Source: an uncultured Intrasporangiaceae bacterium (GTDB lineage: Bacteria; Actinomycetota; Actinomycetes; Actinomycetales; Dermatophilaceae). Taken from it: a stretch of DNA of 59,012 nucleotides. The notes beneath the pieces are model-generated. The model searched no databases. It was not told the origin of the DNA and saw nothing but the letters and a program-made list of their open reading frames with translations. A program made the position numbers and the translations under genes. This document shows positions 1 to 59,012 of this stretch, one piece after another (position 1 is the first letter of the stretch; each line of letters opens with the position of its first letter). The stretch covers positions 1 through 59,012 of the forward strand of contig CAZLGB010000001.1 of the NCBI GenBank assembly GCA_964558825.1, read 5' to 3'.

Positions 1-411
1 CGGCACGGGGATCGCCGGCACGGAGGGGCGTCGCGACCGGCGCGCGCCGACCGCACCGAGCCCATCGGAGGCTCCCAGCGGACCACCCATGGACGCCCGC
101 CTACCGAGCGCAGCGCCGGTGCCCAGTGGTGCAGCGGCACCGAGCGAGGCCCCAGTCGCGAAGGGGGCCCGCGAACCGAGCGGCTCGGACTCCGCCGACG
201 TGCTCGCCAGCTCGAGCAACAGGGCCTGCAGGCCGGCGGACATCCCCGGCTCGCGTGCGGCCCGCAAGGACGCGAGCACTCGCCGCTCCTGCTCGACGGC
301 ATGACGGCAGGGCTCGCAGACGACGACATGGCGATCGCCTGCCAGCAGCTCTGCTGCGGGCAGGCGTCGGTCGACGTAGGCGCTGACGAGGTCGCCGAGG
401 TGCCGCTGCAT
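1..411 (-). CDS. rseA: Anti-sigma-E factor, zinc-binding ZAS family (RseA-like); C-terminal part lies beyond the window start
   Basis: Frame open from ATG at 411 to base 1 (absent from ORF track because it has no stop in the window). The ATG overlaps the sigE stop (ATGA). Translation [17 protein letters not shown]...DRHVVVCEPCRHAVEQE carries the H-x3-C-x2-C ZAS motif. Lies directly downstream of sigE. Confidence 0.8.
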   Translation of the reverse strand, partial: MQRHLGDLVSAYVDRRLPAAELLAGDRHVVVCEPCRHAVEQERRVLASLRAAREPGMSAGLQALLLELASTSAESEPLGSRAPFATGASLGAAAPLGTGAALGRRASMGGPLGASDGLGAVGARRSRRPSVPAIPVP

Positions 412-1103
412 CACGCCCCTTGACGGGCAACGGGGCGCAGCCGCCCCGGCAGGGGTATGCCGGTCCGCGACCGCGCGGGGGCGGCCGCCGCGGCGGGCTT
501 GATGTCGGGATTGACCACGGCGCCGGGGGCGCGGTGGGCCAGCGACTCGCGCAGGGCGGCGCGCCCACGGTGGATGCGCGAGCGCACCGTGCCGAGCTTG
601 ATGCCGAGCGTGGCGGCGATCTCCTCGTAGGACAACCCCTCGATGTCGCACAGGACGACGGCGGCGCGGAAGTCCGGCGGCAGCGCGTCGAGCGCCCGCT
701 GGATGTCGTCGTCGAGGTGGGTCGCCTCGAAGACCTGCTCGGGACCGGGCTCCGAGCTGGCCATCCGCCAAGCGGCGTCCTCGGGGAGGGCGTCGAAACG
801 GATGCGCTGCTTGCGGCGCATCTTGTCGAGGAAGACGTTGGTCGTGATCCGGTGCAGCCAGCCCTCGAAGGTGCCCGGCTGATAGCTGTGCAGCGAGCGG
901 AAGACCCGGACGAAGACGTCGTGGGTGAGGTCCTCGGCGTCGTGCGGATTGCCGGTCAGGCGGTAGGCGAGCCGGTAGACCCGAGCGGAGTGTTCGGTGA
1001 CGATCTGCTCCCACGAGGGCGGTGACCACGGCGCCGTGCCGTCGACCAGCGAAGCGGCGGGCTGGTCCAGCCCACTCGCCGGGAGGGTGAGCGTGTCGGT
1101 CAC
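411..1103 (-). CDS. sigE: ECF RNA polymerase sigma factor SigE
   Basis: 230-aa ORF with sigma-70 region 2 ([26 protein letters not shown]) and region 4 HTH ([25 protein letters not shown]). Followed by a ZAS anti-sigma gene and divergent from an O-methyltransferase, as in the mycobacterial sigE locus. Confidence 0.9.
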
Positions 1104-1292
1104 GTGAGTGTCGCGCCTTTCAGGGAGCTGCTTGTTACGACGTCTGTGGCAGGTCTACGGTTCCCGCGGGTCCCGTGCGTCAGCCACGACTTCACTGTGC
1201 CGGTTCTGTGAGCCAGCAACCATCGGGGTCGACCCCGATATTCCCCTGACCGACCCCGAGCATGCGCCAAGCGGCGCCACTAGGGTGAGCGC

Positions 1293-1925
1293 ATGAGCGC
1301 CAACCGTGCCGCCAGCTGGGCCTATGCCGACGCGTTCGTCTCCGAAGCCCCCGTCATCGAGTCCGCGCGCCGCCGCGGCGAGGAGCTCGGAGCGGTCCCG
1401 GTCGGCACCGCCACCGGCGCGGCCCTGCGGATGCTTGCCGCCGCGGTCCCGGCCAAGGCCGTCGTCGAGATCGGCACCGGCGCCGGGGTGTCCGGGCTGT
1501 GGCTGCTCTCGGGGATGCCCGCCGACGGCGTGCTGACGACCATCGACATCGAGGCCGAGCACCAGCGCGCCGCCAAGGACGCGTATGCCGCGGCCGGCTA
1601 CGCCCACCAGCGCACTCGGGTCATCACCGGGCGGGCGCTCGACGTGCTGGCCCGGATGACCGATGGGGCCTACGACCTGGCCCTCGTCGACGGCGACAAG
1701 TCCGAGTATCCGGCATACGTCACCGAGGCGGCGCGGCTGCTGCGACCGGGGGGTGTGCTTGCGATCGACAACATGCTCTGGCACGACAAGGTGGCCGACC
1801 CGGCGGCCCGCGACGAGGTGACCCGCACCTTGCGCGAGCTCGGCAAGACACTGCGCGAGGACGAGCGCTTCCACACGATGCTCCTGCCCGTCGGCGACGG
1901 CCTGTTGGTGGCCGTCAAGCGCTAA
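1293..1925 (+). CDS. Class I SAM-dependent O-methyltransferase (caffeoyl-CoA OMT-like)
   Basis: 210-aa ORF with SAM-binding motif VEIGTGAGVSGLWLL and a DGDK..Y..Y segment. Divergent from sigE. Confidence 0.85.
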   Translation: MSANRAASWAYADAFVSEAPVIESARRRGEELGAVPVGTATGAALRMLAAAVPAKAVVEIGTGAGVSGLWLLSGMPADGVLTTIDIEAEHQRAAKDAYAAAGYAHQRTRVITGRALDVLARMTDGAYDLALVDGDKSEYPAYVTEAARLLRPGGVLAIDNMLWHDKVADPAARDEVTRTLRELGKTLREDERFHTMLLPVGDGLLVAVKR

Positions 1926-1928
1926 GCC

Positions 1929-2735
1929 GTGGGCGCCCTGCCCGTGCTCGTCGGCCAGGTCAGTGACCTCCACCTCGGCGACGACCCCACAGCCACCGCT
2001 CGTGCCGCGCGGGTCTTCGCCCACCTGGGGGCGATGGCCACGCGCCTCGACGCGCTCGTGCTCACTGGCGACCTCACCGATGCCGGCACCGACGCGGCGT
2101 ATGCCGTGCTCTCCGGCCTGCTCGACGCGCACCTTCCCGGCGGGCCGGCGCTGGTCTACTGCCCGGGCAATCACGACGAGCGGGCGGCATACCAGCGCTT
2201 CCTGGCCGCCCGCGGCGGCCCGCGCGACGGAGTCCATCGGCTGCCCGGGCTCACCGTGCTTGCCCTCGACACCCTCGTGCCCGGCGCACCGCACGGCGAG
2301 CTGGGCGACGCCGGGGCCCGGCGACTGTGGGCCGAGCTCGCCGCGGCGCCACCGGATCGACCGGTCGTCCTGGCCATGCATCACCCGCCGGTGCCCGTGC
2401 ACAGCGAGTGGCTCGACTCGATGCCCCTCACGGACCCCGCGCGGTTGGCGGCGGCGATCGAGGCGAGCGGCCGGCGCCCCGACCTCGTCCTCACCGGGCA
2501 CACTCATGCGGCGACCGCGACGGCCTGGCACGGCATACCCGTGCGGGGGTCTGGGGCGGTGCGCTCGACCCTGATCAGCGAATGGGAGAGCGGGGTGGCG
2601 GACCACCTCACCGACGACGTGCCCCCGATGCTCGCCTTCCATCACCTCTCGCCGGCAGCAACCGGCGGGGGCGGGGGCGCCGGTGCCGGCCCGGCCACCG
2701 TCACCACACGATGGCGCGCGCTCCCGGCCAGCTGA
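1929..2735 (+). CDS. Metallophosphoesterase (CpdA-like phosphodiesterase family)
   Basis: Motifs DLHLGDD, GDLTD, GNHD, HHPP and GHTH in the canonical order. GTG start 4 nt after the previous stop. Confidence 0.8.
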   Translation: MGALPVLVGQVSDLHLGDDPTATARAARVFAHLGAMATRLDALVLTGDLTDAGTDAAYAVLSGLLDAHLPGGPALVYCPGNHDERAAYQRFLAARGGPRDGVHRLPGLTVLALDTLVPGAPHGELGDAGARRLWAELAAAPPDRPVVLAMHHPPVPVHSEWLDSMPLTDPARLAAAIEASGRRPDLVLTGHTHAATATAWHGIPVRGSGAVRSTLISEWESGVADHLTDDVPPMLAFHHLSPAATGGGGGAGAGPATVTTRWRALPAS

Positions 2736-2805: not shown

Positions 2806-2979
2806 TCAGGAGACGCCGTCGCAGCCTTGGATCGCGTCACGCAGGGCCGCAGCCTCGTCGGGCGTCATCTCGACGACCAGACGACCGCCACCCTCGAGCG
2901 GCATACGGAGAACGATCCCGCGCCCCTCCTTGGTGACCTCGAGCGGACCATCACCGGTCCTCGGCTTCATCGCCGCCAT
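2806..2979 (-). CDS. DUF3117-type small conserved actinobacterial protein
   Basis: MAAMKPRTGDGPLEVTKEGRGIVLRMPLEGGGRLVVEMTPDEAAAL matches this conserved ~55-aa family. Start moved to the internal ATG at 2979, which is preceded by GAGGAAGG. Confidence 0.8.
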   Translation of the reverse strand: MAAMKPRTGDGPLEVTKEGRGIVLRMPLEGGGRLVVEMTPDEAAALRDAIQGCDGVS

Positions 2980-3932: not shown

Positions 3933-5204
3933 TCAGGGAGCCCAGTCGGTCGGTGGCGTGAAGTGCCAGAGGACGCTGATCCACTTCCACTGCCACCACA
4001 GGGCGAGCGGCACGAGCACGGCGAAGCGCAGCATCGTCGGCAGCCACCGTCCGCGCCCGCGCTCCCCTGCCAGCCCGAGCAGGACGGCGAGATAGGGAAA
4101 CATCGGCAGCAGGTAGCGAGGAGTGCTCGTCCCTGGGGTCTGAGCCGCCATGACGTATGCCGCGTAGACCAGCGGCCAGGTGCGCAGCTCGGCGCCGAGC
4201 CGCCGCGCCCAGGGGCCGGCAACTCCGGCGATGAGCACGGCGATGAGAGCGACGAGTGCCGGCAGCGCCCAGTCGCCGAGGTAATAGGGCGGGATGGTCA
4301 GCCACGGCTCGAAGATGCGCACCTGACCGCCGTAGGACCAGGCCCCCATCGTCTCGAGGTAGGCGTTGCGCTCGCCCGTGCCGAGCCAGGCGATCGCCGG
4401 CCACAGCAGGCCGGCGACGCCGCACCCGACGAGGGCGGCGAGGGCTGAGGCCGCCTCGCTCGCCGCGATCGGTGAGGTATGCCGGCGCCGCCACCGCAGC
4501 CACAGCGCGACGAGGGTGACGACGCCCAGCGGGAGCGCGATCGGTCGGGTGAGGCCGATGAGCAGCGCCAATCCCGTTGCGACGAGCCAGCGCTCGCGAC
4601 GCAGGGCAAGCAGGTAGCCGCACAGCAGCAGCATGGCGAAGGACTCGGTGTAGCAGACCTGCAGCGCCGGGGAGGAGGGAAAGACGGCATACAGGGTGAC
4701 GGTGAGCAGCGCGCCGACGCGCCCGAGCGGCTCGCGCAGCAAGAGGGCCATGAGCACGGCCGCGCCGAAGCCCGCGAGCAGGGCGAGCATCGACCCGACG
4801 ACGGGGAAGGACGCGCCGGTGAGCGTCATCACCACTCGCGAGAGCAGCGGATAGAGGGGATAGAAGGCCCAGGGGTTCTGCTGGACCGAGCCGTTGTCGT
4901 CGCGCGGCAGCTCGCTCGGATAGCCGTCGGTGGCGATGCGGCCATACCACTCGCCGTCCCAGAGCCGGGTGAAGCCGAAGTAGCCGACGCGCAGGCCGTC
5001 GGTCATACCGGCCGGCTCCTGGGACGGCGCGACGATCGCCAGCATGACCGCGGTGAGGAGCCGGGTGACGGCATAGAGGTAGACGACCTGGGCGACGAGG
5101 CTGCCGCGCAACACCCGGGCCAGCAGCGCCTCGGCCCGGGGGAAGGCGAGCGGGGCTGGAGGGTCGGCCGCCGCCGGTGCGGCGGGACCGGCGGAGGCGC
5201 TCAC
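3933..5204 (-). CDS. Polytopic membrane protein, GT-C / PIG-V-like mannosyltransferase family
   Basis: About 10 predicted TM helices and a WDGEWYGRIATDGY motif reminiscent of PIG-V-type mannosyltransferases. The GTG start at 5204 overlaps the tag stop (GTGA). The upstream part of the 602-aa track ORF overlaps tag and is Arg-rich shadow. Confidence 0.65.
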   Translation of the reverse strand: MSASAGPAAPAAADPPAPLAFPRAEALLARVLRGSLVAQVVYLYAVTRLLTAVMLAIVAPSQEPAGMTDGLRVGYFGFTRLWDGEWYGRIATDGYPSELPRDDNGSVQQNPWAFYPLYPLLSRVVMTLTGASFPVVGSMLALLAGFGAAVLMALLLREPLGRVGALLTVTLYAVFPSSPALQVCYTESFAMLLLCGYLLALRRERWLVATGLALLIGLTRPIALPLGVVTLVALWLRWRRRHTSPIAASEAASALAALVGCGVAGLLWPAIAWLGTGERNAYLETMGAWSYGGQVRIFEPWLTIPPYYLGDWALPALVALIAVLIAGVAGPWARRLGAELRTWPLVYAAYVMAAQTPGTSTPRYLLPMFPYLAVLLGLAGERGRGRWLPTMLRFAVLVPLALWWQWKWISVLWHFTPPTDWAP

Positions 5205-5806
5205 TCGCGTCCCGACCGGTGGCACCCGAGCAGGTGGTCGTCGACGAGCCCACAGGCCTGCATCGCGGCATACATCGTCGTCGGTCCGACGAAGACGAAG
5301 CCGTGCGCCTTGAGCGCCTTGGCGAGGGCCACCGACTCGGGGCTGCTCGCGCGCAGCTCGGCCGGGCTCGCGGGAGGGGTATGCCGGGCCGGCGCGTGTG
5401 ACCACACGAGGGCGTCGAGCCCCCCGTGCTCGCGCAGCGCCACGGTCTCGCGGGCGTTGGCGATCGCCGCGTCGACCTTGCGGACGTTGCGGACGATGCC
5501 GGGGTCGGCCAACAGCCGCGCGCGGTCGTCGGCGTCGAAGGTAGCGACGACCTCGGGGTCGAAGCCCGCGAAGGCGGCGCGGAAGGACTCGCGCTTGCGC
5601 AGGATGGTCAGCCAGGACAGCCCCGACTGAAAGGCCTCGAGGGTGAGTCGCTCGAAGAGCGCCGACTCGCCGTGCACCGGCCGGCCCCATTCGAGGTCGT
5701 GATAGTCGACATAGTCGGGGGCCGAGGCGGCCCAGGCGCACCGGGGTATGTCGTCAGCCCCCACGGCGATGCCCGGCCGGGACGGGGTGCTCGCCCCGTC
5801 GGTCAC
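5201..5806 (-). CDS. tag: DNA-3-methyladenine glycosylase I
   Basis: 201-aa ORF. YHDLEWGRPV, LTLEAFQSGLSWLTILRKRE and GPTTMYAAMQACGLVDDH are typical of Tag. Confidence 0.9.
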   Translation of the reverse strand: MTDGASTPSRPGIAVGADDIPRCAWAASAPDYVDYHDLEWGRPVHGESALFERLTLEAFQSGLSWLTILRKRESFRAAFAGFDPEVVATFDADDRARLLADPGIVRNVRKVDAAIANARETVALREHGGLDALVWSHAPARHTPPASPAELRASSPESVALAKALKAHGFVFVGPTTMYAAMQACGLVDDHLLGCHRSGRE

Positions 5807-6598: not shown

Positions 6599-7497
<899 letters not shown>

Positions 7498-7804: not shown

Positions 7805-8314
7805 TCAGCGAGGCCCTCCGTCAGGAAGGCTGCGATGGATCAGCTCATGGTGGTGGCGGCGCAGGCCCTCGGGAAGCGCATCGAGGGTGAACCACCGCGC
7901 CTCGAGGATCTCGCTGCGCTGCAACCGGATCGGCCCCGATTCAGGCGCCACCCGCGCGACGAGGTCGACCTCGATCCGCAGCCGCAGCCCCGCCGACACC
8001 CGCACGACGTGGACCTCGGCGAGCTCCAGCCCGGTCTCCTCGCGCACCTCTCGGGCAAAGGCGGCCTCGAGGCTCTCGCCCCGCTCGAGATAGCCGCTCG
8101 GCGTGCCCCACGGACAGTCCTTCCACCAGCGGTGGCGCAGCAGCAGCACCCGACCGGCATCGTCGTGCACTGCACCCGTGAGCCCGACGACGAACTGCGG
8201 GTGACGCAGCCACAACAGCCGCCACTGCGCCCGCCCGGACAACGCGCGCCACACCGCGGGGCCAAGCCCGTCGGGCAGGCCGGCGGCGAGCGCATCGCGC
8301 AGGCGCACCGGCAT
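7805..8314 (-). CDS. NUDIX hydrolase
   Basis: Nudix box GYLERGESLEAAFAREVREETGL. ATG at 8314 is preceded by GAGAGG. The upstream part of the track ORF overlaps dapE. Confidence 0.8.
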   Translation of the reverse strand: MPVRLRDALAAGLPDGLGPAVWRALSGRAQWRLLWLRHPQFVVGLTGAVHDDAGRVLLLRHRWWKDCPWGTPSGYLERGESLEAAFAREVREETGLELAEVHVVRVSAGLRLRIEVDLVARVAPESGPIRLQRSEILEARWFTLDALPEGLRRHHHELIHRSLPDGGPR

Positions 8315-8333
8315 ACCTCTCGCCCCCAAAGGG

Positions 8334-9416
8334 TCAGGCGCCGAGCCAGCGCCGCATGGCCGCCTCGGCGGCGACATACTGCGCGACCGGGGCGCGCTCG
8401 TCGTCCATGTGCGCGAGCAGCGGGTCGCCGGGGCCGTAGTTGACGGCCGGGATGCCCAAGCCGGCAAAGCGGGCGACGTCGGTCCAGCCCTCCTTGGCCT
8501 GCACCGGCACGCCGAGCGCGGTGACGAAGGCCTGGGCGGCCGGCCGGTCGAGCCCCGGACGCGCGCCGCCGGCGTTGTCGACGATCTCCAGCTCGAAGGC
8601 GTGGAAGACCTCGCGCACGTGTGCGACGGCCTGCTCCTCCGAGCGGTCGGGGGCATACCGATAGTTGACGGTCACCGTGCACGAGTCGGGGATGATGTTG
8701 GCCGCCGTGCCACCGCTGATGAGCACGGCCTGCAGCGCCTCGCGATAGGTCAGCCCCTCGACGTCGACGACCCGCGCGGTGTATGCCGTGAGCCGCGCGA
8801 GGATCTCACCCGCGTCGTGAATCGCGTTGTGTCCCATCCACGGACGCGCCGAGTGAGAGGCAATCCCCTTGGTGCGCACCTCTGCTCGCAAGGTGCCCTT
8901 GCAGCCGCCCTCGACGGTGCCATCGGTCGGCTCCATGAGGACGGCGAAATCCGCCTGCAGCGCAGTGGGATCCGAGGCGGCGACCCGCCGCAGGCCGTTG
9001 CGCTCGGAGTCGACCTCTTCACAGTCGTAGAAGCAATAGGTGACGTCACGGTTGGGCTCGGCGAGGGTGGCGGCGAGCTTGAGCATGACCGCCACGCCGC
9101 CCTTCATGTCGACGGTGCCGCGGCCGACGAGCTCATCGCCGACCCGGCGGGTCGGGAGATTGGGCGTGGCCCGGGTGAGCGGCACCGTGTCGATGTGCCC
9201 GGCGATGACGACTCGCTCGGCGCGGCCGAGCTCGGTGCGAGCGATGACGGTGTTGCCGTCGCGGTGGACATGCAGGTGGCGCAGCGGGGTCAGCGCCGCC
9301 TCGATGGCGTCGGCCAGGGGGGCCTCGTCGCCGCTCACCGACTCGATGTCGCAGACGGCCGCGGTGAGGGCGACGACGTCGAGGGCACAGTCGAGCGACA
9401 GCGAGTGGGACGGCAT
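8334..9416 (-). CDS. dapE: Succinyl-diaminopimelate desuccinylase
   Basis: M20 peptidase pattern ([25 protein letters not shown]) with the actinobacterial DapE layout. Divergent from dapD. Start at the internal ATG 9416 ([15 protein letters not shown]). Confidence 0.9.
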
Positions 9417-48875: not shown

Positions 48876-48893
48876 CGGCAGTAAACTTCACGA

Positions 48894-49163: not shown

Positions 49164-49170
49164 GGGGCCG

Positions 49171-49824
49171 GTGGCGCCATTTGAGGCGACGGGCGCGCGG
49201 TGGGAACCTTGCGGGGTGACCGAAGCCCTCGCCGTCATCGCCATCTTGGTTTCATTGGGGTCGCTCTACTTCGCATGGAAGGTTGCTAGATCCACCGAGG
49301 ATCAAGCCGACATACAGCGTCAGATCCGGATCGATGCTGCGCAGCCGTTCGTTTTCGCTGACATCCGTCCGCACCACCAGCATGGCAGCCTCCTCATGTT
49401 CGTAGTCGGGAACACTGGTCCGACAGTGGCGACCAACGTCCGCATCTCCCTTCACCGCCCACTCCCCGCAGGCGACACGGACCGAGCGCTGAGAGCCACA
49501 CGCGCCATCGAGAACGGAATCTCGGCGCTAACGCCGGGCCAGACGGTCGCATGGACGCTCGGCGTGCCCTGGCAGGTTCTCGAACAGGTTCCCGAAGGGG
49601 ACGCTTCGTATCGCTTTGCCGTCACCTGCGATGGCCCCTTCGGCCCCGTGCCGCCCCTGGAGTACACCGTCGACCTAGACGACATTCGGCACTCACACCC
49701 GTATGCCGTGGGCACCCTTCACGGCGTTGCAGAACAGATCAGATCACTCAGAGAGGACCTCGCGCGGCAGCTCAGAGAGCTCCGCCCACCACTTGCCCAC
49801 ATGGATGATGAGGAGGACGAGTGA
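49171..49824 (+). CDS. Membrane-anchored hypothetical protein with acidic C-terminus (cargo)
   Basis: TM helix ALAVIAILVSLGSLYFAW, then a probable beta-rich domain (LLMFVVGNTGPTVATNVRISL), and it ends DDEEDE. The start is ambiguous (GTG 49171 or 49216). Confidence 0.6.
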   Translation: MAPFEATGARWEPCGVTEALAVIAILVSLGSLYFAWKVARSTEDQADIQRQIRIDAAQPFVFADIRPHHQHGSLLMFVVGNTGPTVATNVRISLHRPLPAGDTDRALRATRAIENGISALTPGQTVAWTLGVPWQVLEQVPEGDASYRFAVTCDGPFGPVPPLEYTVDLDDIRHSHPYAVGTLHGVAEQIRSLREDLARQLRELRPPLAHMDDEEDE

Positions 49825-49865
49825 CGTACAACAGCCACGGACTCCGGGACCGCGCTCGTGGGTCA

Positions 49866-50054
49866 TTAGCTCTCAAGGTCGACCCTCTGCCCGCAACTCG
49901 AGCACACGAGCTTGCGCAGCGCGCCCTTTGCGAGCCCCGCCGCGACTAGCGTCGTCTTCCCACATGTGGGGCAGTTCAGGAACTGCTCGGGTCTGTTGCT
50001 CATATCCTCCAGGTCGCCAACTAGATCATCGAGACCATCGAACTCCATGCTCAT
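49866..50054 (-). CDS. Small zinc-ribbon protein (cargo)
   Basis: 62 aa. Acidic N-terminus, then CPTC..x21..CSSC. Start at the internal ATG 50054. The upstream part of the track ORF is implausible. Confidence 0.55.
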   Translation of the reverse strand: MSMEFDGLDDLVGDLEDMSNRPEQFLNCPTCGKTTLVAAGLAKGALRKLVCSSCGQRVDLES

Positions 50055-50076
50055 GCCCCTGACCGTACCCAACGAC

Positions 50077-50107
50077 ACCGCCCCCCGCTCATCGAGCGGG
50101 GGGCGGT
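50077..50107 (-). terminator. Strong hairpin: 14-bp perfect GC-rich stem, 3-nt loop
   Basis: ACCGCCCCCCGCTC-ATC-GAGCGGGGGGCGGT, about 85 nt downstream of the 72-aa gene on the minus strand. Confidence 0.65.
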
Positions 50108-50193
50108 CTCTTGACGTCGAGCTACTTGACCCGCTCGAACACCGGGGCCAAGTACGCACGGGGTCAGGCACGGTAGGAAGTCCAGACGAGCGC

Positions 50194-50412
50194 TCACTGC
50201 TCCATCTTCGCCACGAGTTCCGAGGTCTTGATGCCGAGCCTGTCCGCGATGAAGAACAAGGTCTCGACCCTCGGAGTGGGGTCGTCGGGCGCCGGAATGT
50301 CCGGCTGGAGCCGATGGGCGAGCCGAGTGAGGGCGCGGGCGATGTCGTCCACGGCATATGCCAGCCATCCGCGCGGGTCCGTCAGGACCACGGGAAGACG
50401 GTCGGCGTTCAT
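50194..50412 (-). CDS. Hypothetical small protein (element regulatory module)
   Basis: 72 aa. ATGA overlap with the XRE gene. C-terminus (ETLFFIADRLGIKTSELVAKME) resembles the last helices of an XRE domain. Confidence 0.55.
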   Translation of the reverse strand: MNADRLPVVLTDPRGWLAYAVDDIARALTRLAHRLQPDIPAPDDPTPRVETLFFIADRLGIKTSELVAKMEQ

Positions 50413-50618
50413 CGGGCCACCACCTTCCCCATCGTGCGGTCAGCTGCCATCCGGCCCAGCGCATCGAGAGCCTGGTCACGCCGCGCCGGGCGAGCCTCAA
50501 CCTGACCCCGTTCGTAACGGCCCAACCAGGACCGGCTCAGCCCCGACTCCCGAGCGAGCTGCTCCAGCGTGAAGCCCAACGCCGTGCGCAGCAACCGCAA
50601 GGCCGCACCGTAGCTCAT
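50409..50618 (-). CDS. XRE-family HTH transcriptional regulator (Cro/CI-like)
   Basis: LRLLRTALGFTLEQLARESGLSRSWLGRYERGQ. Confidence 0.75.
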   Translation of the reverse strand: MSYGAALRLLRTALGFTLEQLARESGLSRSWLGRYERGQVEARPARRDQALDALGRMAADRTMGKVVAR

Positions 50619-50983: not shown

Positions 50984-52078
50984 TTACCTAGTTGTTGCAG
51001 AGTGTCGGAACTCGACCACGTCGCCGTCGGCCATCACATAGTCCTTGCCCTCGATGCGCACCTTGCCCGCAGCGCGCGCGGCCACCATCGTCCCGGCGGC
51101 ATCCAGATCGGCGAAGGACACGACCTCGGCCTTGATGAAGCCCCGCTGGAAGTCGGTGTGGATGACACCCGCAGCTTGCGGGGCCGTCCAGCCCTGGCGG
51201 ATCGTCCAGGCTCGCGACTCCTTGGGCCCCGCCGTCAAATAGGTCTGCAGCCCGAGGGTGTGGAAGCCGACATGAGCGAGCTGGTCGAGCCCCGGCTCGG
51301 TCACGCCCACCGACTCAAGCAGCTCGCGCGCCTCCGCCTCGTCGAGCTCGGCCAGATCGGCCTCAAGCTTGGCCGACAGGAAGACGCTGTCGGCAGGCGC
51401 CACCGACGCGCGCAGTCGCGCCTGCAACTCGGTGTCGGTCAGCTGGTCTTCGTCGAGATTGAAGACATAGATGAAGGGCTTGGTCGTCAGCAGCTGCAGC
51501 GCGCGCGCCTCGGCGAGGTCGACCCCGTAGGCCGCGCCGGCGGCATACAGCGTCTTGCCATCCTCCAAACACCGTTGCGCCGCAACGGCATTGTCGTATG
51601 CCGCCCGCTTGTCCTTGACGACGCGCGCCTCCTTCTCCAGGCGCGGGACGGCCTTTTCGAGGGTCTGGAGGTCGGCGAGGCAGAGCTCGGTCTCGATGGT
51701 CTCGATGTCCCCGGCCGGGCTGACCTTGCCCTCGACGTGGGTGACGTCGTCGTCGACGAAGACCCGCACGACCTGGCAGATGGCGTCGGCCTCGCGGATG
51801 TTGGCGAGGAACTTGTTGCCCAGACCCTCGCCCTCGGAGGCGCCGCGGACGATGCCGGCGATGTCGACGAAGGACACGGTCGCGGGCAGAATCCGCTCCG
51901 AGCCATAGATCTCGGCCAGTCTCGCCAGCCGTGGATCGGGCAGCGGCACGACGCCGACATTGGGCTCGATCGTCGCGAAGGGATAGTTCGCGGCCAGGAC
52001 GTTGTTCTTGGTCAGCGCATTGAAGAGCGTCGACTTGCCGACGTTGGGAAGGCCGACGATTCCGATGGTGAGCGCCAC
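50984..52078 (-). CDS. ychF: Redox-regulated ATPase YchF, with C-terminus altered by the insertion
   Basis: [18 protein letters not shown] and the full YchF pattern. It ends ..[14 protein letters not shown] instead of ..VEFRFNV. Confidence 0.93.
51006..51013. repeat. attR core (CGGAACTC)
   Basis: See attL. Lies within ychF codons V-E-F-R. Confidence 0.8.
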
Positions 52079-52111: not shown

Positions 52112-52741
52112 CTAGCGCGCAGATGGGTCGCCGGCCCCGGCCACCGGCAGCAGCCAGGCGCGCTCGACCGCGTCGACATGACGGGCGAAGAAGGCATCCC
52201 GCTGCTCGACCGTCTGCAGGTGGCGCCACAGCTTGCGGTCCAGCTCGATGGCCCCGTGAACGGACGCCCACATCGAGGACGCCACCTCCAGCAGGTCGGT
52301 CGCCTTCAGCCGGCCGGCCGTGACCATGCGCATCATGGCCGCGACGACTTTACTCAGCCCCGGTGCGATGAGGGCGTCGACCAAGGATTCGCGGCCTTCG
52401 ACGCTGAATCGGCCGCCGAACATCACGGCATACAGGTCGACGTGATCGAGCGCCCACGCGCGGTAGGCGAAAACATAGCTACGGAGGTCTGCCGCAGGAT
52501 CAGCGGTCTCGGGCACCTGCAGGAGGGCGGCCGTGAGGCTATCTGCGCCAGCCTCGATGACCGCGTCGATCAACTCTTGCTTGCCCCCGAAGAGGGCATA
52601 GATGGCGCTCGTCGACGTGCCGTGCTCCGCTGCCAGGCGACGCATGACCAGTCCGTCGACTCCCCCTCCGGCCACAGTGCGAGCTGCTCCCTCGAGCAGA
52701 GCATCCCGCAGCCCCTTGTCATGGATCTTCGGCCTGGCCAT
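52112..52741 (-). CDS. TetR/AcrR family transcriptional regulator
   Basis: HTH LVMRRLAAEHGTSTSAIYALFGGKQELI. Confidence 0.85.
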   Translation of the reverse strand: MARPKIHDKGLRDALLEGAARTVAGGGVDGLVMRRLAAEHGTSTSAIYALFGGKQELIDAVIEAGADSLTAALLQVPETADPAADLRSYVFAYRAWALDHVDLYAVMFGGRFSVEGRESLVDALIAPGLSKVVAAMMRMVTAGRLKATDLLEVASSMWASVHGAIELDRKLWRHLQTVEQRDAFFARHVDAVERAWLLPVAGAGDPSAR

Positions 52742-52941
52742 GCGCCGGAAATTAGCATAGCCAGATTGGAACGACGTTATGGAACATCGATGAAAAGAAC
52801 ATGGCGATATGCCGGAAAGGCCCGAAATACCACTACTTTCTCCGGTTCACCTTCCCACTGAGCGGGGATCGCCCCTCGCAGTCACCCCACGCGACCGGGC
52901 ATTTTGCGGTCGTATGCCGTGCCCGTTGACCGCGTCACCTC

Positions 52942-53814: not shown

Positions 53815-54627
53815 TCAGTCTTGCACTGCCTGCTGCGCCACGGCGAAGGCCCGCCGAAACGGCAGGACGACCCCGCCGGGTCCGGGCGGATAGGCGGCCC
53901 GCAGCCGGCTGGCGAACTCGGCGAGGAAGGCCTCCCGCAGGGGCCCTTCGGGGATGGCCTGGATGGTCGGGCGGGCGCCCGTGCCGGACACCCACTCGAG
54001 GACGGGGTCTGGTCCTGGCAGCACGTGCAGGTAGGTCGTCTCCCAGGCGTCGACGCCAAGGCCGAGCCGGCCCAGGTGCTCGAGATAGGCCGCTGCGCGC
54101 GGTGCGTCAGGCGCCGCGACCCCCCGGGTGTATGCCGTGTACGGGGCTTCGGCGGCCAGCTCACGCCGGATCGTGTGGCTGGGTTGGTCGAAATTGCCGG
54201 GCACCTGGATGGCCAGCCACCCACCGGGGGCGAGTCGCTCGACGAGGCGTGGGAGCAGCTCGAGGTGATCGGGGATCCATTGCAGCGCTGCATTGCTGAT
54301 GATGACGTCGACCGCTGCGTCGGGCTCCCAGCTGCGCACGTCGCCCAGCTCGAAGGACAGCTGGCCCCTCGCCCCGGCACGGCCCGCGGGCTCCGGGCGG
54401 CGCAACGCCTGGGCTTGCTCGATCATCCGCGCCGAGCTGTCCACACCGACGACCCGTGCGTCGGGCCAGCGCTCGGCGAGCAGCTCGGTGAGCGTCCCCG
54501 GGCCGCACCCGAGGTCGACGACCAGACGCGGATCCTCGGCGCCGACCCGGGCGAGCAGCTCGACGAACGGACGGCCGCGCTCGGCGGCATACCGCAGATA
54601 GGTCTGCGGATCCCACGTGTGGACCAT
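53815..54627 (-). CDS. tam: Trans-aconitate 2-methyltransferase
   Basis: WDPQTYLRYAAERGRPFVELL..VVDLGCGPGTLTELLAERWP..VVGVDSSARMI..SNAALQW is the Tam pattern. ATG 54627 preferred; GTG 54645 is possible. Confidence 0.85.
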   Translation of the reverse strand: MVHTWDPQTYLRYAAERGRPFVELLARVGAEDPRLVVDLGCGPGTLTELLAERWPDARVVGVDSSARMIEQAQALRRPEPAGRAGARGQLSFELGDVRSWEPDAAVDVIISNAALQWIPDHLELLPRLVERLAPGGWLAIQVPGNFDQPSHTIRRELAAEAPYTAYTRGVAAPDAPRAAAYLEHLGRLGLGVDAWETTYLHVLPGPDPVLEWVSGTGARPTIQAIPEGPLREAFLAEFASRLRAAYPPGPGGVVLPFRRAFAVAQQAVQD

Positions 54628-55390: not shown

Positions 55391-56587
55391 ATGGATGGCT
55401 TTGCTCCGCTCGCTCTCGCCGCCCTCGCCGGTGCCGTCATCACCTGGCTGGTGATCCAGGTGCGGTATGCCGCGCGCCTCGCCGCGGCGACGGCCGAGCG
55501 CGACGTGCTGCGCGAGCGGGTCGTCGACCTCGAGGCCACCGTCGCGGCGGACGACGAGACGGCCGCTCTCGTCGCCCCGCTGGCGGCGAGCCTCGACCGG
55601 GTGGCCGCGCAGGTGCACACCCTCGAGCGCGAGCGCGGCGAGCAGTTCTCCCGGGTCGCGCTGGAGCTGGCCCGGGTGCAGTCGAGCACCGACGGGCTGC
55701 GTGATCAGACCGCCTCGCTCGTCGGCTCGCTCTCCTCGGCCAACACGCGCGGGGCGTGGGGCGAGCTGACCCTGCGCCGGGTGCTCGAGGTATCGGGGAT
55801 GCTTCCCCGCTGCGACTTCGACACCCAGTGGAGCGGTCGCACCCGCGATGGGGCGGCGGTGCGCCCCGACGTCGTCGTTCACCTGCCCGGCGACAAGCAT
55901 CTGGCGATCGACGCCAAGGCCCCGATGAGCGACTTCCTCGCCGCGGCCGCCGACGGGCTCGACGAGCCGGCCCGGGCCGACCTGCTGCGCCGTCATGCGC
56001 GGGCGCTGCGCGGGCATGTCGAGACGCTGGCAGCCAAGGGCTACTGGTCGGCCGTCGGCCCCTCCCCCGAGCTCGTCGTGTGCTTCGTGCCCGGCGATGC
56101 GCTGCTCGCCACCGCCTTGTCCGCCGACCCGGGCCTGCACGAGCACGCCATGGCCAAGCGAGTCGTGCTGGCCTCTCCCGCAACGCTGTTGGCGTTGCTG
56201 CGCACGGTGGCGGTCACCTGGCAGCAGGACGCGCTCGCCGATGGAGCCCGCGAGCTGCTCGGGCTGGGCCGCGACCTCTATGCGCGGATCGGCGCGCTGG
56301 GTCGGCATACCGAGGCGGTCGGGGCGAGCCTGCGGCGCTCGGTGCAGGCCTACAACGGGCTCGTCGGGTCGCTCGAGGGGCGGGTGCTCGTCACCGCGCG
56401 GCGGATGCAGCAGCTCGGGCTGGCCGACGAGCCGCTGCCCGCACCGGCGCCGGTGCTCGAGACGCCACGCCCGCTCACCGCCGTCGAGTTGCTCGAGGCG
56501 CTCGACGAGCAGCTGGCCGCCGAGGGCGCGGGGCGCGAGCCAATCGTGCAAGAGGTGGTGGCGCGACGCGAGCGAGAGGTGGGCTGA
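55391..56587 (+). CDS. rmuC: DNA recombination protein RmuC
   Basis: N-terminal TM and coiled coil, then GAWGELTLRRVLE..LAIDAKAP..FVPGDA..A.E..V.LASPATLLALLR is the RmuC pattern. Start ambiguous (55361 TTG or 55391 ATG). Confidence 0.85.
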   Translation: MDGFAPLALAALAGAVITWLVIQVRYAARLAAATAERDVLRERVVDLEATVAADDETAALVAPLAASLDRVAAQVHTLERERGEQFSRVALELARVQSSTDGLRDQTASLVGSLSSANTRGAWGELTLRRVLEVSGMLPRCDFDTQWSGRTRDGAAVRPDVVVHLPGDKHLAIDAKAPMSDFLAAAADGLDEPARADLLRRHARALRGHVETLAAKGYWSAVGPSPELVVCFVPGDALLATALSADPGLHEHAMAKRVVLASPATLLALLRTVAVTWQQDALADGARELLGLGRDLYARIGALGRHTEAVGASLRRSVQAYNGLVGSLEGRVLVTARRMQQLGLADEPLPAPAPVLETPRPLTAVELLEALDEQLAAEGAGREPIVQEVVARREREVG

Positions 56588-56616
56588 CGCCGCTCAGGAC
56601 GTGCTCGACGAAGCAC

Positions 56617-57684
56617 TCAGTGCAGCGAGCCCGAGCCGGAGAAGGACCCGTCGTGGCGGACCGTGGCAGGGTCCTGTCCGGAGAGGTTCTTGATGTCCCG
56701 GCGCAGCTCGTTGGGCAGGGCGAAGAGCAATGACTCCTCCGCGGCGACGACCGGCTGCACGTCGGTGAACCCCCGCTCGGCGAGGAAGTCGAGCACGTCC
56801 CGGACGAGCAGCTCGGGCACGCTGGCCCCGGAGGTCACTCCGACGGTGGTGACGCCGTCGAGCCAGGCCGGGTCGATCTCGGCGGCATAGTCGACCAGGT
56901 GGCCGGCCGCGGCGCCATGCTCGAGGGCGACCTCGACGAGGCGCACCGAGTTGGAGGAGTTGCGCGAGCCGACGACGATCATCAGGTCGGTGTCACGGGC
57001 CATCTGCTTGACCGCGAGCTGGCGATTCTGGGTGGCATAGCAGATGTCATCGCTCGGCGGGTCGACGAGCGCCGGGAAGCGCTCGCGCAGCCGGGCCACC
57101 GTCTCGAGGGTCTCGTCGACCGACAGCGTGGTCTGCGAGAGCCAGACGACCTTGTCGGGGTCGCGGACCTGCACATCGGCGACCGCGTGCGGTCCGTCGA
57201 CGATGCGGATGTGCTCGGGCGCCTCGCCGCTCGTGCCGACGACCTCCTCGTGGCCCTCGTGGCCGATGAGCAGGATGTCGTAGTCGTCCTTGGCGAAGCG
57301 CACGGCCTCGCGGTGGACCTTGGTCACCAACGGGCAGGTCGCGTCGATCGTCTTGAGCGAGCGCGCGGCCGCCTCGGCGTGGACGACCGGGGCGACGCCG
57401 TGGGCGGAGAAGATCACCGTCGCGCCCTCGGGCACCTCGTCGGTCTCGTCGACGAAGACCGCACCCCGGCCCCGCAGCGTCTCGACGACGTGCTTGTTGT
57501 GGACGATCTCCTTGCGGACATAGACCGGCGGCCCGTAGAGCTCGAGCGCCTTCTCCACGGTGACGACCGCCCGGTCCACGCCTGCGCAATAGCCGCGTGG
57601 AGCCGCGAGGAGCACGCGTTTGGCGGCTGACCCTGCCGGTGCGGGGTTCGGTGAGACGCCGGACGTATCTGCAGCGGGCGGCAT
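56617..57684 (-). CDS. ispH: 4-hydroxy-3-methylbut-2-enyl diphosphate reductase
   Basis: [50 protein letters not shown] is the IspH/LytB pattern. Confidence 0.93.
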
Positions 57685-57718
57685 ACCCTCATGCTACGTG
57701 CGCGCATGAGGTATGCCG
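57679..57718. repeat. Inverted pair of the abundant octamer forming an imperfect 13-14-bp inverted repeat in the ispH divergent intergenic region
   Basis: GGCATACCCTCATG (57680-93) and CATGAGGTATGCC (57705-17). The first copy contains the ispH start codon. Confidence 0.8.
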
Positions 57719-57751
57719 TCCCACCGCTTGTCTCCCCGGAGGACACCCGCC

Positions 57752-59012
57752 ATGACCGACCGCCAGCCCACCGACCTCGTCGTCGTCCTGCCCGGGATCA
57801 CCGGGTCGACCCTCTACAAAGACGGCAAGCCCGTGTGGGAGCCCTCGGCCGGAGCCCTGATCAACGCTCTGTTCACCCTCGGAGGGAGCCTGCGCTCGCT
57901 CAAGCTCCCCGACGGGATCGGTGACGACCACCCGGCTGACGGGATCGAGCCGCGGGCGCTCGTCGACGACGTCCACGTCATCCCGGGCATTTGGACCCCG
58001 ATCAAGGGCTATTCCCCGCTTATCGATCGGCTGCACGCGCTCGGTTACCGCGAGCCGACCGCCGACACTCCCGGCAACCTGCTCCCGATGCCCTACGACT
58101 GGCGCCTGTCCAATCGCTACACGGCCGGCTGGATGGCCCCGACGATCCAGCGAGAGCTGGAGCGCTGGCGCGCCCAGGGCGGGCGGTATGCCGGCGCGAC
58201 GGTCACCTTCGTCTGCCACTCGATGGGTGGGCTCGTCGCGCGGTGGTATGCCGCCCACCAGGGGGCCGATCACACCGGGATGATCGTCACCTTCGGCACG
58301 CCGATGCGCGGCTCGATGAATGCCGTCGACCAACTCGTCAACGGCGCCCCCTCATCCATGGGGCCGCTGCGCGGGCTCATCAGCGACCTCGGCCGGTCGC
58401 TGCCGTCGCTTCACCAGTTGCTGCCGTCCTATGCCTGCGTCACCGGCGGTGCCGAGCTCGAGCGGATCGATCCGGCAGTCCTCCCCCACGGCAACTCGGC
58501 GATGGTCGCCGACGGGCTCGCCTTCTACGACCAGCTGGAGACCGCCGAAGCCGGCGACCCGGCATACGCCAAGAAGCTCCACGCGATCGTCGGGACCAAC
58601 CAGCCGACCCAGACGACCGTGGCCATGCGCCCCGACGGGGTGGAGATCTATGCCAACTACGGCGACGACGACTTCCAGGGCGACTCGACGGTGCCGCTCG
58701 TCGGCGCGGCGCCCAAGGGGGTGGCGCTCAATGACAACACCCTGCGGCGCGTCCCCGACAATCACGGCAACCTGCAACGCAATCCGGCCGCCCTCGACGA
58801 GCTCGAAGGGGTGCTGCGCGCCAAGCCGATCATCGCCAAGGGCGACCTGCTCATCCCCCTCTCCGTCACCGTGCCCACGGTCGTGGCGGCCGGCGAGGCC
58901 CTCGCCGTCGAGGTCGCCGTCGACCCGGGCAACAGCCCTGCGCTGCGGGCCACGGTGCGCGCGGCAGGCGCCCACCAGGGCAGCGGCACGACCCGGCCGC
59001 TGACCATCGAGG
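57752..59012 (+). CDS. Alpha/beta-hydrolase, LCAT/PGAP1-like lipase-acyltransferase family; 3' end beyond the window
   Basis: Frame open from ATG 57752 (GGAGG 10 nt upstream) to the window end, and not in the track because it has no stop. LPGITGS oxyanion-type motif, nucleophile elbow CHSMGG and DSTVP..H late motifs. Confidence 0.75.
   Translation, partial: MTDRQPTDLVVVLPGITGSTLYKDGKPVWEPSAGALINALFTLGGSLRSLKLPDGIGDDHPADGIEPRALVDDVHVIPGIWTPIKGYSPLIDRLHALGYREPTADTPGNLLPMPYDWRLSNRYTAGWMAPTIQRELERWRAQGGRYAGATVTFVCHSMGGLVARWYAAHQGADHTGMIVTFGTPMRGSMNAVDQLVNGAPSSMGPLRGLISDLGRSLPSLHQLLPSYACVTGGAELERIDPAVLPHGNSAMVADGLAFYDQLETAEAGDPAYAKKLHAIVGTNQPTQTTVAMRPDGVEIYANYGDDDFQGDSTVPLVGAAPKGVALNDNTLRRVPDNHGNLQRNPAALDELEGVLRAKPIIAKGDLLIPLSVTVPTVVAAGEALAVEVAVDPGNSPALRATVRAAGAHQGSGTTRPLTIE

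Follow-up and report, generated by a model that had tools for sequence, protein, structure and literature searches.

What would place one asymmetric octamer, GTATGCCG (reverse complement CGGCATAC), at dozens of sites along an actinobacterial chromosome? The question arose from a contig of an uncultured Intrasporangiaceae bacterium (CAZLGB010000001.1), analyzed here as a single stretch of 59,012 bp (the window), in which a first-pass annotation had noticed roughly 80 copies in about equal orientations. Exact counting agrees with this: the window holds 79 copies, 43 on the plus strand and 36 on the minus strand (13.4 per 10 kb), with 2–10 copies per 5-kb bin and a mean spacing of 745 bp that is close to random. 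GTATGCCG outnumbers every other 8-mer in the window despite its three A/T positions at 70% guanine plus cytosine (GC), and codon-driven words such as CGACGACG rank below it. The comparisons described here show that the force behind this excess is sharp, spans eight bases, is strand-symmetric and operates at the level of DNA; it acts throughout the chromosome and in several genera, with a specificity that shifts from one genus to another.

Dinucleotide-preserving shuffles of the window gave an expectation of 1.15 copies (maximum 5), and Markov models of orders 0–3 gave 1.3–3.5. Composition likewise predicts few copies of the 7-mer GTATGCC, as the annotation had argued; it occurs 82 times against 3.0 expected. 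The maximal-order Markov check that the annotation had proposed was run on the window and proved uninformative (70 expected, 79 observed), because the 6- and 7-mer sub-words almost never occur outside the octamer, and the excess was therefore judged against Markov orders 0–3 and real-genome backgrounds. The word is also sharply bounded. One-mismatch variants have 0–10 copies apiece in the window, and no flanking position exceeds 0.19 bit, consistent with the earlier remark that no base beyond the eight is conserved. In other motif-rich genomes the flanks reach at most 0.24 bit, and this maximum falls at a codon third position. A 10-base extension, GTATGCCGTG, was rejected; weak preferences at +1 and +2 track codon phase. 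The two truncated variants that had been placed near 8652 and 39996 are both real (8652–8658 and 39998–40004), and a third exists at 43563–43569.

The phylogenetic reach of the word was evaluated in BipA-anchored loci from 80 species. These place the window in the Dermatophilaceae, close to Candidatus (Ca.) Phosphoribacter, with a Dermatophilaceae metagenome-assembled genome (L001, 93% BipA identity) and Ca. Phosphoribacter hodrii (L042, 89%) as nearest relatives. The octamer is the top outlier, at 8–18 per 10 kb, in L001, L008, L010 (Tetrasphaera), L015 and L018 (Nostocoides), L021 (Ca. Lutibacillus), L034 and L042, and thus the same 8-mer is conserved in related genera (Phosphoribacter, Nostocoides, Tetrasphaera and Lutibacillus), as the annotation had suggested checking. 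Intermediate densities of 3–5 per 10 kb were detected in Pedococcus, Phycicoccus sp. 3266, Intrasporangium, Serinicoccus and Ornithinimicrobium; isolates are included here, and isolate genomes such as Phycicoccus sp. 3266 and Ornithinimicrobium sp. Y1847 are 15- to 25-fold enriched. The word was absent from the loci of Piscicoccus, Austwickia, Mobilicoccus, Oryzobacter and Streptosporangiales. Pooled motif-rich DNA contains 273 copies in 221 kb (12.4 per 10 kb) versus 16 copies in 999 kb of motif-poor loci of similar GC, and a separate pooling of equal-GC relatives gave 0.22 per 10 kb in 924 kb; the excess over background by these two poolings is about 56- to 77-fold. Enrichment is limited to the complete 8-mer. 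Other xxATGCCG words are not raised, and a general preference for ATGCCG after NA was therefore rejected.

The signal extends beyond the BipA locus. A metagenome scan for close inverted pairs of GTATGCCG recovered 23 contigs of high GC, 179 kb in all and drawn from unrelated genomic regions, with 11.7 copies per 10 kb, or 9.1 per 10 kb once the ascertained pair in each contig is removed. An independent assembly, L081, is 99.9% identical to the window and has all 18 of the 18 sites in the 13.3 kb that they share. The word is dense both in short-read assemblies (SPAdes/MEGAHIT-style contig names) and in long-read assemblies. Collectively, the relatives, the 23 contigs and L081 establish that the signal is genome-wide and lineage-wide and is not an artefact, which removes two outcomes that the annotation had allowed for, namely an assembly or consensus artefact and an excess confined to the window.

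Reading frames reveal how the word is accommodated in genes. Window genes were assigned by a GC3-based call combined with Pfam; this call is rough and dropped at least one real gene, at the copy at 8781. Coding copies use all six frames (G-TAT-GCC-G, 27; xCG-GCA-TAC, 20; C-GGC-ATA-C, 7; GT-ATG-CCG, 6; CGG-CAT-AC, 5; GTA-TGC-CG, 1), with coding-strand and template-strand copies in near balance (34:32 in the window, 115:110 pooled). About 13 of the 79 copies lie outside called genes, including those at 14329 and 22684 that had been listed as intergenic. The share of copies in coding DNA, 82%, roughly matches coding density. A repeated protein motif was ruled out as the cause, because the word occurs in all six frames and outside coding DNA.

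The octamer leaves an imprint on codons and proteins. Seven of the 10 ATA codons in the window lie inside it, Tyr-Ala(GCC) is spelled TAT-GCC 45 times versus TAC-GCC 15 times, and the codon examples given earlier at 455–462, 1583–1590 and 1711–1718 are correct. The proteome is shifted as well, with Ala-Tyr dipeptide odds of 1.23 versus 0.81–0.90 and a Tyr content of 2.40% versus 2.1%. In BipA (29108–29115), a conserved Pro-Thr-Tyr has become Pro-Ala-Tyr by means of the rare codon GCA, where Thr is present in 99% of compared non-D1 orthologues. Copies favor protein positions of lower conservation (mean percentile 0.38, p = 0.036, n = 20), a measure that is partly circular because conservation was scored as identity to the window's own residue. 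These observations show that copies gather where the cost to protein is lowest, yet override rare codons and some conserved residues. The claim that the pressure acts on DNA rather than on protein is thus upheld by the six frames, both gene strands, non-coding DNA, rare codons and the Thr-to-Ala change in BipA.

Codon usage in motif-rich genomes departs from that of relatives in a broader way. The TAT share of Tyr codons is 18–48%, versus mostly 0–12% in motif-poor relatives of similar GC, and this exceeds what the octamer explains (27 of 150 TAT codons in the window are within copies). CAT for His is likewise somewhat raised.

To determine how copies arise, sites were mapped codon by codon to orthologues. 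Alignments are gap-free, and relatives hold words that are 1–4 substitutions from GTATGCCG. In citrate synthase, for example, relatives have GTAGGCCG or GTACGCCG where the window has GTATGCCG (Ala-Tyr with the rare GCA). The substituted positions differ between genera and include transversions, and thus do not reflect one mismatch type. Of the mapped sites, 17 of 42 are common to the window and L001, L042 or L008 (L008 being more distant by BipA, at 83%, than the other two), versus 18% for control 8-mers (p = 0.0006); only one of 31 is common to other motif-rich genera, versus ~17% for controls. This pattern of sharing argues that accumulation is independent and continuing in each lineage, with existing copies being kept preferentially. 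The BipA site at 29108–29115 carries the octamer in the window and in L008 and lacks it in the closer relatives L001 and L042, which suggests parallel gain or exchange between lineages.

Two sources of copies were rejected. The transition neighbor GTACGCCG occurs at 0.23 per 10 kb in motif-rich genomes versus 1.1–1.65 elsewhere; methyl-cytosine deamination of this word cannot be the sole source of copies, since the pool (1–2 per 10 kb) is about ten times too small to yield 12 per 10 kb, and the other substitution types further rule it out. A mobile repeat, such as a repetitive extragenic palindromic (REP) element or a miniature inverted-repeat transposable element (MITE), was rejected because flanks are unconserved and orthologous alignments are gap-free; copies are also mostly coding. 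Together with the mapped substitutions, these results show that a directional force still converts near-matches to perfect copies by point substitution chromosome-wide.

Trivial causes in general (a protein motif or codon bias, REP/MITE, deamination of GTACGCCG, or an artefact of assembly or base calling) are accordingly very improbable as an explanation. It is true that most coding copies in the window (47 of 66) use the Tyr-Ala or Ala-Tyr frame, that TAT usage is raised generally, and that all fully motif-rich genomes sampled are metagenome-assembled. However, these points are outweighed by the use of six frames and non-coding DNA, the unconserved flanks and gap-free alignments, the small precursor pool, the repetition of the same sites in L081, the density across both assembly types and the enrichment in isolates.

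A force of this kind might act within the cell without any transfer of DNA, as could be envisaged for HIP1 (highly iterated palindrome 1). Under such a model, an orphan DNA methyltransferase, sequence-specific mismatch correction, or both would drive near-matches to the word, through biased very-short-patch repair or through selection on an epigenetic function. The length, density, many-frame genic presence and patchy phylum- or family-level conservation of the octamer match HIP1 (PMC4390886), and the near disappearance of GTACGCCG from motif-rich genomes would also fit. The integrated phage-like element in the window is relevant here: it has 8 copies in 10.3 kb, or 7.8 per 10 kb versus 14.6 outside (one-sided p = 0.052), and is itself strongly enriched over background, as expected if the process acted on any DNA replicating in the cell. 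The ratio reported by the annotation, of about half the flanking density, therefore stands, although it is statistically weak. Conversely, the word lacks the palindromic symmetry of HIP1 and of most methylase or Vsr targets; substitutions occur at many positions and include transversions; and the GTACGCCG pool is far below the density attained. Pfam and PHROG annotation found no DNA methyltransferase or Vsr gene in the window, though one may be encoded elsewhere in the genome. On balance, we regard a purely intracellular origin as distinctly unlikely.

Sister genera provide further evidence on specificity. Leave-one-out 8-mer enrichment across loci revealed that Ornithinibacter-like genomes (L014, L017, L030 and L041) carry GGATGCCG at 10.4 per 10 kb versus a background of 1.8. 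This word differs from GTATGCCG by one base (T/G at position 2). Its copies run both ways and use many frames, 16 of the 79 are non-coding, and the genomes that carry it lack GTATGCCG; it looks like a dialect. An unrelated word, (G)CGAAGGGG, was identified in Marihabitans (L069) and Janibacter (L049) at 10 and 7 per 10 kb versus a background of 0.6 (22 and 16 copies, respectively, per ~22 kb, where about 1.4 are expected). It is non-polar, uses many frames, often follows G-R, and appears to be a second hyper-abundant word within the same family. In a rough neighbor-joining tree of BipA, a single gene that does not give a robust topology, GTATGCCG-rich lineages form a grade within which the GGATGCCG group and motif-less genera are nested.

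Other enriched words were also encountered. GTACGCCG is ~6-fold enriched in L054 (Marmoricola), L051 and L003 (Austwickia sp.) with background-like frame use, and this may reflect either a codon effect or a third dialect. CTCGAGGA (L019), CCTGGCCA (Nonomuraea) and CCGCTAGC (L062) were rejected as members of the same class and judged to be codon effects or local repeats. Of these, CCTGGCCA is 4- to 5-fold enriched in Nonomuraea (L061, L067 and L075–L077), uses two frames only and contains CCTGG, which could point to a codon effect or to one of the Dcm/Vsr type. CCGCTAGC occurs nine times versus 0.08 expected in L062 (Sphaerisporangium flaviroseum), always in non-coding DNA and in strictly alternating orientation, and looks like a palindromic intergenic repeat family. 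The 1412-bp metagenome contig L317 (31% GC) has CGGCATACCATAA repeated in tandem together with inverted copies of GGTATGCCG, and resembles an iteron-type array of an unrelated replicon that contains the octamer by chance.

The orientation of copies bears on whether the word could be a polar signal. Beyond the window, orientation is ~50:50 in eight related genomes and 97:112 in the 23 contigs. No locus of the nine departs from 50:50 (binomial p ≥ 0.33), and there is no gene-strand bias. A polar signal of the Chi or KOPS (FtsK-orienting polar sequence) type is excluded because orientation is 50:50 in all loci, in line with the distinction that the annotation had drawn. Neighboring copies nevertheless have structure: among close pairs, 22 are inverted versus 8 direct (p = 0.016). 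The coefficient of variation of spacing is 0.87 in pooled data, with gaps <100 bp at the exponential expectation. Only two or three of the 22 close inverted pairs form intergenic hairpins, most being within genes with long loops, and a general association of copies with terminators was not found beyond isolated cases.

Two inverted pairs illustrate those cases. Between divergent ispH-like and lipase-like genes, an inverted repeat at 57676–57721 holds the octamer both ways in its arms (GGGCGGCATACCCTCATGC ... GCATGAGGTATGCCGTCC), with a DNA fold of −20.1 kcal/mol (z = −3.8). Directly 3' of bipA, L001 (6268–6310) and L042 (12347–12389) have an inverted octamer pair in a hairpin with a 12-bp stem (CAGGTATGCCG-loop-CGGCATACCTG) that looks like a terminator; the window has a single copy at this position (27840–27847).

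The same data can be read in terms of a non-polar, Chi-like recombination or repair signal. In this scenario, a helicase-nuclease of the AdnAB or RecBCD type would read the word as a mark of own DNA and switch from degradation to RecA loading, with selection keeping both orientations so that either end of a two-ended break would soon meet a correctly oriented copy. Selection on two orientations would give the predominance of inverted close pairs and the alternation of neighboring copies (153:111, p = 0.011). The word is an 8-mer, as is Chi of Escherichia coli, it is conserved across genera with slow changes in specificity, and it is sparser in the phage-like element. Against this, there is no strand bias in the nine loci or 23 contigs and the excess is about 56- to 77-fold, whereas every Chi characterized so far is co-oriented with replication and only few-fold over-represented, and no Chi is known for AdnAB. 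We therefore consider such a signal unlikely, albeit worth retaining as an alternative.

Slightly more even spacing than random, independence of orientation and conservation across genera would also be compatible with dense binding sites of an abundant chromosome-organizing or other DNA-binding protein, kept by selection on site density. However, perfect copies number 273 versus roughly 40 one-mismatch copies (as an excess over background), a sharpness that is unusual for nucleoid proteins. In addition, individual sites turn over between genera, and sister genera lack the word or have another. Binding sites of this type are thus an improbable explanation.

We tentatively favor, at less than even confidence, the interpretation that GTATGCCG is a tag of kin DNA that is kept abundant by biased horizontal transfer and recombination, by analogy with the DNA uptake sequences (DUS) of Neisseriaceae and the uptake signal sequences (USS) of Pasteurellaceae. 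We infer that a conserved Dermatophilaceae protein reads the word as double-stranded DNA. Fragments bearing it would be imported or transferred preferentially, imported DNA of the same clade would undergo homologous recombination, and the word would spread through the population by molecular drive, whether or not selection also acts. Natural transformation is one possible route; another, in this phylum, is a TraB/FtsK-like translocase of double-stranded DNA with recognition of 8-bp words. Recognition specificity would have shifted in sister genera, to GGATGCCG in Ornithinibacter-like lineages and to CGAAGGGG in Janibacter and Marihabitans. This interpretation is ranked first because the known generators of such a pattern are biased import of own DNA with recombination (DUS/USS) and HIP1, which is still under debate and is now tied to transformation, and because actinobacteria also possess TraB-type readers of 8-bp words. 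With somewhat less assurance still, Dermatophilaceae, among them Ca. Phosphoribacter and Nostocoides/Tetrasphaera, which are dominant phosphate accumulators of wastewater worldwide, may possess sequence-specific exchange of their own chromosomal DNA, with a word that differs by genus (GTATGCCG, GGATGCCG or CGAAGGGG).

Several results weigh against a kin-DNA tag. The depletion of the integrated element is two-fold and borderline, and its density is still ~35 times background. Neighboring copies alternate in orientation above chance, where an uptake model predicts no such pattern. The share of copies in coding DNA contrasts with DUS and USS (DNA uptake-enhancing sequences, DUES), about half of which lie in terminators (bioRxiv 10.1101/2025.10.24.684340). 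No competence, receptor or TraB-type gene was found in the window by Pfam and PHROG annotation. Lastly, the clt loci read by TraB each hold a small cluster of plasmid-borne direct repeats, whereas GTATGCCG would comprise roughly 5,000 dispersed copies in both orientations.

The window itself is an ordinary housekeeping region with a small integrated phage-like element (Table 1). Genes identified by Pfam include those for an ECF sigma factor, Tag glycosylase, dapD/dapE-like proteins, citrate synthase, an Opp-type ABC transporter, TypA/BipA, ornithine carbamoyltransferase, YchF, RmuC and IspH. Genes of the element mostly lack a family match, no FtsK/TraB domain was found in it, and the window has no tRNA gene. 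The element terminase had no relatives among viral contigs, and a phage collection yielded distant actinophage relatives only. A scan of viral contigs for motif pairs returned at least 120 matches, which is chance level, and neighboring contigs used to extend the window added nothing new. The sparsest 5-kb bin, 20001–25000 (two copies), has the second-lowest GC of the twelve (0.675) and lies in the Opp-type transporter cluster, with family-5 solute-binding protein genes at 22798–24525 and 25921–27852; it may have been acquired more recently.

Table 1. Exact copies of GTATGCCG, truncated matches and the integrated element in the window (CDS, coding sequence; ORF, open reading frame; coding and template denote the gene strand that carries the word)
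Feature	Positions	Strand	Context
Whole window, 79 copies	1-59012		13.4 per 10 kb
Copy	455-462	+	CDS template; ACC-GGC-ATA-CCC (TGIP), ECF sigma gene
Copy	1583-1590	+	CDS coding; GCG-TAT-GCC-GCG (AYAA)
Copy	1711-1718	-	CDS template; CCG-GCA-TAC (PAY)
Copy	2099-2106	+	CDS coding; GCG-TAT-GCC-GTG (AYAV)
Copy	2185-2192	-	CDS template; GCG-GCA-TAC (AAY)
Copy	2531-2538	-	CDS template; CAC-GGC-ATA-CCC (HGIP)
Copy	2899-2906	-	between called genes
Copy	4155-4162	+	CDS template; GCG-GCA-TAC (AAY)
Copy	4477-4484	+	CDS template; CGG-CAT-ACC (RHT)
Copy	4685-4692	-	CDS coding; CTG-TAT-GCC-GTC (LYAV)
Copy	5266-5273	-	CDS coding; ATG-TAT-GCC-GCG (MYAA), Tag glycosylase gene
Copy	5379-5386	+	CDS template; CGG-CAT-ACC (RHT)
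Copy	7023-7030	-	CDS coding; AAG-TAT-GCC-GAG (KYAE)
Copy	7206-7213	-	CDS coding; GGG-TAT-GCC-GTG (GYAV)
Copy	7255-7262	+	CDS template; CCG-GCA-TAC (PAY)
Copy	8309-8316	-	CDS coding; GGT-ATG-CCG (GMP)
Copy	8781-8788	+	missed by gene call; within Pfam-supported M20 peptidase ORF 8334-9737 (-)
Copy	9411-9418	-	overlap of dapE-like and dapD-like ORFs; frame assignment uncertain
Copy	10546-10553	+	CDS coding; CTG-TAT-GCC-GGG (LYAG)
Copy	10950-10957	-	CDS template; ACG-GCA-TAC (TAY)
Copy	11024-11031	+	CDS coding; GTA-TGC-CGG (VCR), sole copy in this frame
Copy	12151-12158	+	citrate synthase template; GCG-GCA-TAC (AAY); GCC/GCG-TAC in relatives
Copy	12412-12419	+	citrate synthase template; GCG-GCA-TAC (AAY); T-S-Y in outgroup majority
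Copy	13272-13279	+	CDS template; CGG-CAT-ACG (RHT)
Copy	14329-14336	+	between called genes
Copy	14607-14614	+	CDS coding; TGG-TAT-GCC-GCC (WYAA)
Copy	14831-14838	-	CDS template; GCG-GCA-TAC (AAY)
Copy	15137-15144	-	CDS template; ACG-GCA-TAC (TAY)
Copy	16169-16176	-	CDS coding; CAG-TAT-GCC-GGT (QYAG)
Copy	17164-17171	-	CDS template; ACG-GCA-TAC (TAY)
Copy	17912-17919	+	CDS coding; CGG-TAT-GCC-GTG (RYAV)
Copy	18530-18537	-	CDS coding; GGT-ATG-CCG (GMP)
Copy	18901-18908	+	CDS template; GCG-GCA-TAC (AAY)
Copy	19144-19151	-	CDS coding; GGT-ATG-CCG (GMP)
Copy	21530-21537	+	CDS template; ACG-GCA-TAC (TAY)
Copy	22684-22691	+	between called genes
Copy	25981-25988	+	CDS template; ACG-GCA-TAC (TAY)
Copy	26544-26551	-	CDS coding; GCG-TAT-GCC-GTG (AYAV)
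Copy	27013-27020	+	CDS template; GCG-GCA-TAC (AAY)
Copy	27840-27847	-	directly 3' of bipA, start of next gene (ATG-AGG-TAT-GCC-GGG); inverted motif pair here in L001, L042
Copy	29108-29115	+	BipA/TypA template; CCG-GCA-TAC (PAY); P-T-Y in 99% of compared non-D1 orthologues
Copy	29948-29955	+	CDS template; CAC-GGC-ATA-CCC (HGIP)
Copy	30904-30911	-	CDS coding; GCG-TAT-GCC-GGG (AYAG)
Copy	31280-31287	+	between called genes
Copy	31597-31604	-	CDS coding; GGT-ATG-CCG (GMP)
Copy	32087-32094	-	CDS coding; CCG-TAT-GCC-GTG (PYAV); common to L001 and L042
Copy	32618-32625	-	CDS coding; ACG-TAT-GCC-GAT (TYAD)
Copy	32806-32813	+	CDS template; CGG-CAT-ACG (RHT)
Copy	33847-33854	+	CDS template; ACC-GGC-ATA-CCC (TGIP)
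Copy	34969-34976	+	CDS template; GCG-GCA-TAC (AAY)
Copy	35895-35902	-	CDS coding; GCG-TAT-GCC-GGG (AYAG)
Copy	36198-36205	+	CDS template; CCC-GGC-ATA-CCC (PGIP)
Copy	37469-37476	-	between called genes
Copy	37688-37695	+	between called genes
Copy	37919-37926	-	between called genes
Copy	38455-38462	-	CDS coding; GAG-TAT-GCC-GTC (EYAV)
Copy	39639-39646	-	CDS template; GCC-GGC-ATA-CCT (AGIP)
Copy	39780-39787	+	CDS coding; GAG-TAT-GCC-GCG (EYAA)
Copy	41372-41379	+	serine integrase gene of integrated element; GGG-TAT-GCC-GCC (GYAA)
Copy	41393-41400	+	serine integrase gene, 21 bp past copy at 41372; GCG-TAT-GCC-GCG (AYAA)
Copy	41861-41868	+	serine integrase gene; CGG-TAT-GCC-GGC (RYAG)
Copy	43733-43740	+	element gene; GGT-ATG-CCG (GMP)
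Copy	44815-44822	+	element gene; GGT-ATG-CCG (GMP)
Copy	45639-45646	-	element, between called genes
Copy	46717-46724	-	element gene, template; ACG-GCA-TAC (TAY)
Copy	49701-49708	+	element, outside called genes (within ORF 49033-49824)
Copy	51541-51548	-	ychF coding; CTG-TAT-GCC-GCC (LYAA)
Copy	51596-51603	+	ychF template; GCG-GCA-TAC (AAY)
Copy	52426-52433	-	CDS coding; CTG-TAT-GCC-GTG (LYAV)
Copy	52912-52919	+	between called genes
Copy	54130-54137	+	CDS template; ACG-GCA-TAC (TAY)
Copy	54585-54592	-	CDS coding; CGG-TAT-GCC-GCC (RYAA)
Copy	55465-55472	+	rmuC coding; CGG-TAT-GCC-GCG (RYAA)
Copy	56303-56310	-	CDS template; CGG-CAT-ACC (RHT)
Copy	57679-57686	-	intergenic hairpin, left arm
Copy	57711-57718	+	right arm of hairpin shared with copy at 57679; overlaps gene start
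Copy	58186-58193	+	CDS coding; CGG-TAT-GCC-GGC (RYAG)
Copy	58246-58253	+	CDS coding; TGG-TAT-GCC-GCC (WYAA)
Copy	58560-58567	-	CDS template; CCG-GCA-TAC (PAY)
GTATGCC without final G (decayed or incipient copy)	8652-8658	-	7-mer match
GTATGCC without final G	39998-40004	-	7-mer match
GTATGCC without final G	43563-43569	-	7-mer match
Integrated phage-like element	41148-50500	+	limits approximate; holds a serine integrase (41148-42557) and a large terminase (47469-48875)

An octamer with apparent dialects in the Actinomycetota predicts an undiscovered sequence-specific DNA recognition system, and it explains the odd codon usage (TAT, ATA and GCA) of these genomes. The carriers dominate biological phosphorus removal (Ca. 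Phosphoribacter and Nostocoides/Tetrasphaera in wastewater) and are hard to manipulate genetically. If an exchange system is indeed responsible, Gram-positive, high-GC bacteria would have their first known example of an uptake- or transfer-sequence system with dialects, and adding the word to donor DNA would possibly make these organisms transformable. The word could also be used as a marker of recently acquired DNA, and for contig binning and host assignment in activated-sludge metagenomes.

Full-text literature searches, whose coverage is incomplete, found no prior description of GTATGCCG, its complement or its variants, nor did they return anything relevant on octamer over-representation or uptake sequences in actinobacteria or Tetrasphaera. 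This is in keeping with the annotation's statement that no such element had been described for an actinobacterium. Exact words of such abundance are otherwise known from few clades (Neisseriaceae, Pasteurellaceae and cyanobacteria), and each led to discoveries in self-DNA recognition.

Chi (read by RecBCD or AddAB) and KOPS or SRS (SpoIIIE recognition sequences; read by FtsK or SpoIIIE) are, like GTATGCCG, over-represented on core chromosomes with species-specific sequences. They are asymmetric words of 5–8 bases that are read by translocases; GTATGCCG is likewise asymmetric, and its reader is inferred. Chi and KOPS words are strongly co-oriented with replication and modestly over-represented, unlike GTATGCCG, which is 50:50 in every locus tested with an excess of about 60-fold.

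The TraB/clt systems of Streptomyces conjugative plasmids and of actinomycete integrative and conjugative elements (AICEs) recognize 8-bp words for transfer, and chromosomal 'clc' copies have been hypothesized (PMC4447253, PMC11571958). TraB is an FtsK-like translocase that reads double-stranded DNA with a specificity that differs by element, and it has been proposed to mobilize chromosomal DNA (PMC4447253, PMC11571958). TraB words are, like GTATGCCG, actinobacterial, 8 bp long and asymmetric. Unlike clt, only 8 of the 30 close pairs of GTATGCCG are direct, and a TraB gene was not found in the window.

HIP1 (GCGATCGC) of cyanobacteria is also an octamer of comparable density that is spread over coding and non-coding DNA and is a conserved feature of a large clade, apart from exceptional lineages without it, but it is palindromic whereas GTATGCCG is asymmetric. 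HIP1 holds the targets of two orphan methyltransferases (PMC4390886), and its function, long a puzzle, is now linked to transformation (bioRxiv 10.1101/2024.09.10.611283, 10.64898/2026.06.24.733823).

The closest parallels are with DUS and USS. These are likewise short exact words that occur at about one per kb, tens- to hundreds-fold over expectation, in equal orientations. Their genic copies also lie in the cheapest frames and leave a measurable proteome imprint, and they too feature family-level conservation, genus-level dialects, turnover of sites between genera and occasional inverted pairs that form hairpins. They are also less dense in mobile DNA, for which the integrated element offers a borderline parallel (p = 0.052). 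GTATGCCG differs in having 8 bases rather than 9–12, in lacking semi-conserved flanks, in its coding share of 82% without a general link to terminators, in the absence of a ComP-like receptor candidate among window genes, and in its occurrence in a high-GC Gram-positive phylum. What is new here is thus a hyper-abundant iterated oligomer in a new phylum, with a distinct anatomy that is asymmetric, embedded in coding DNA and diversified into dialects.

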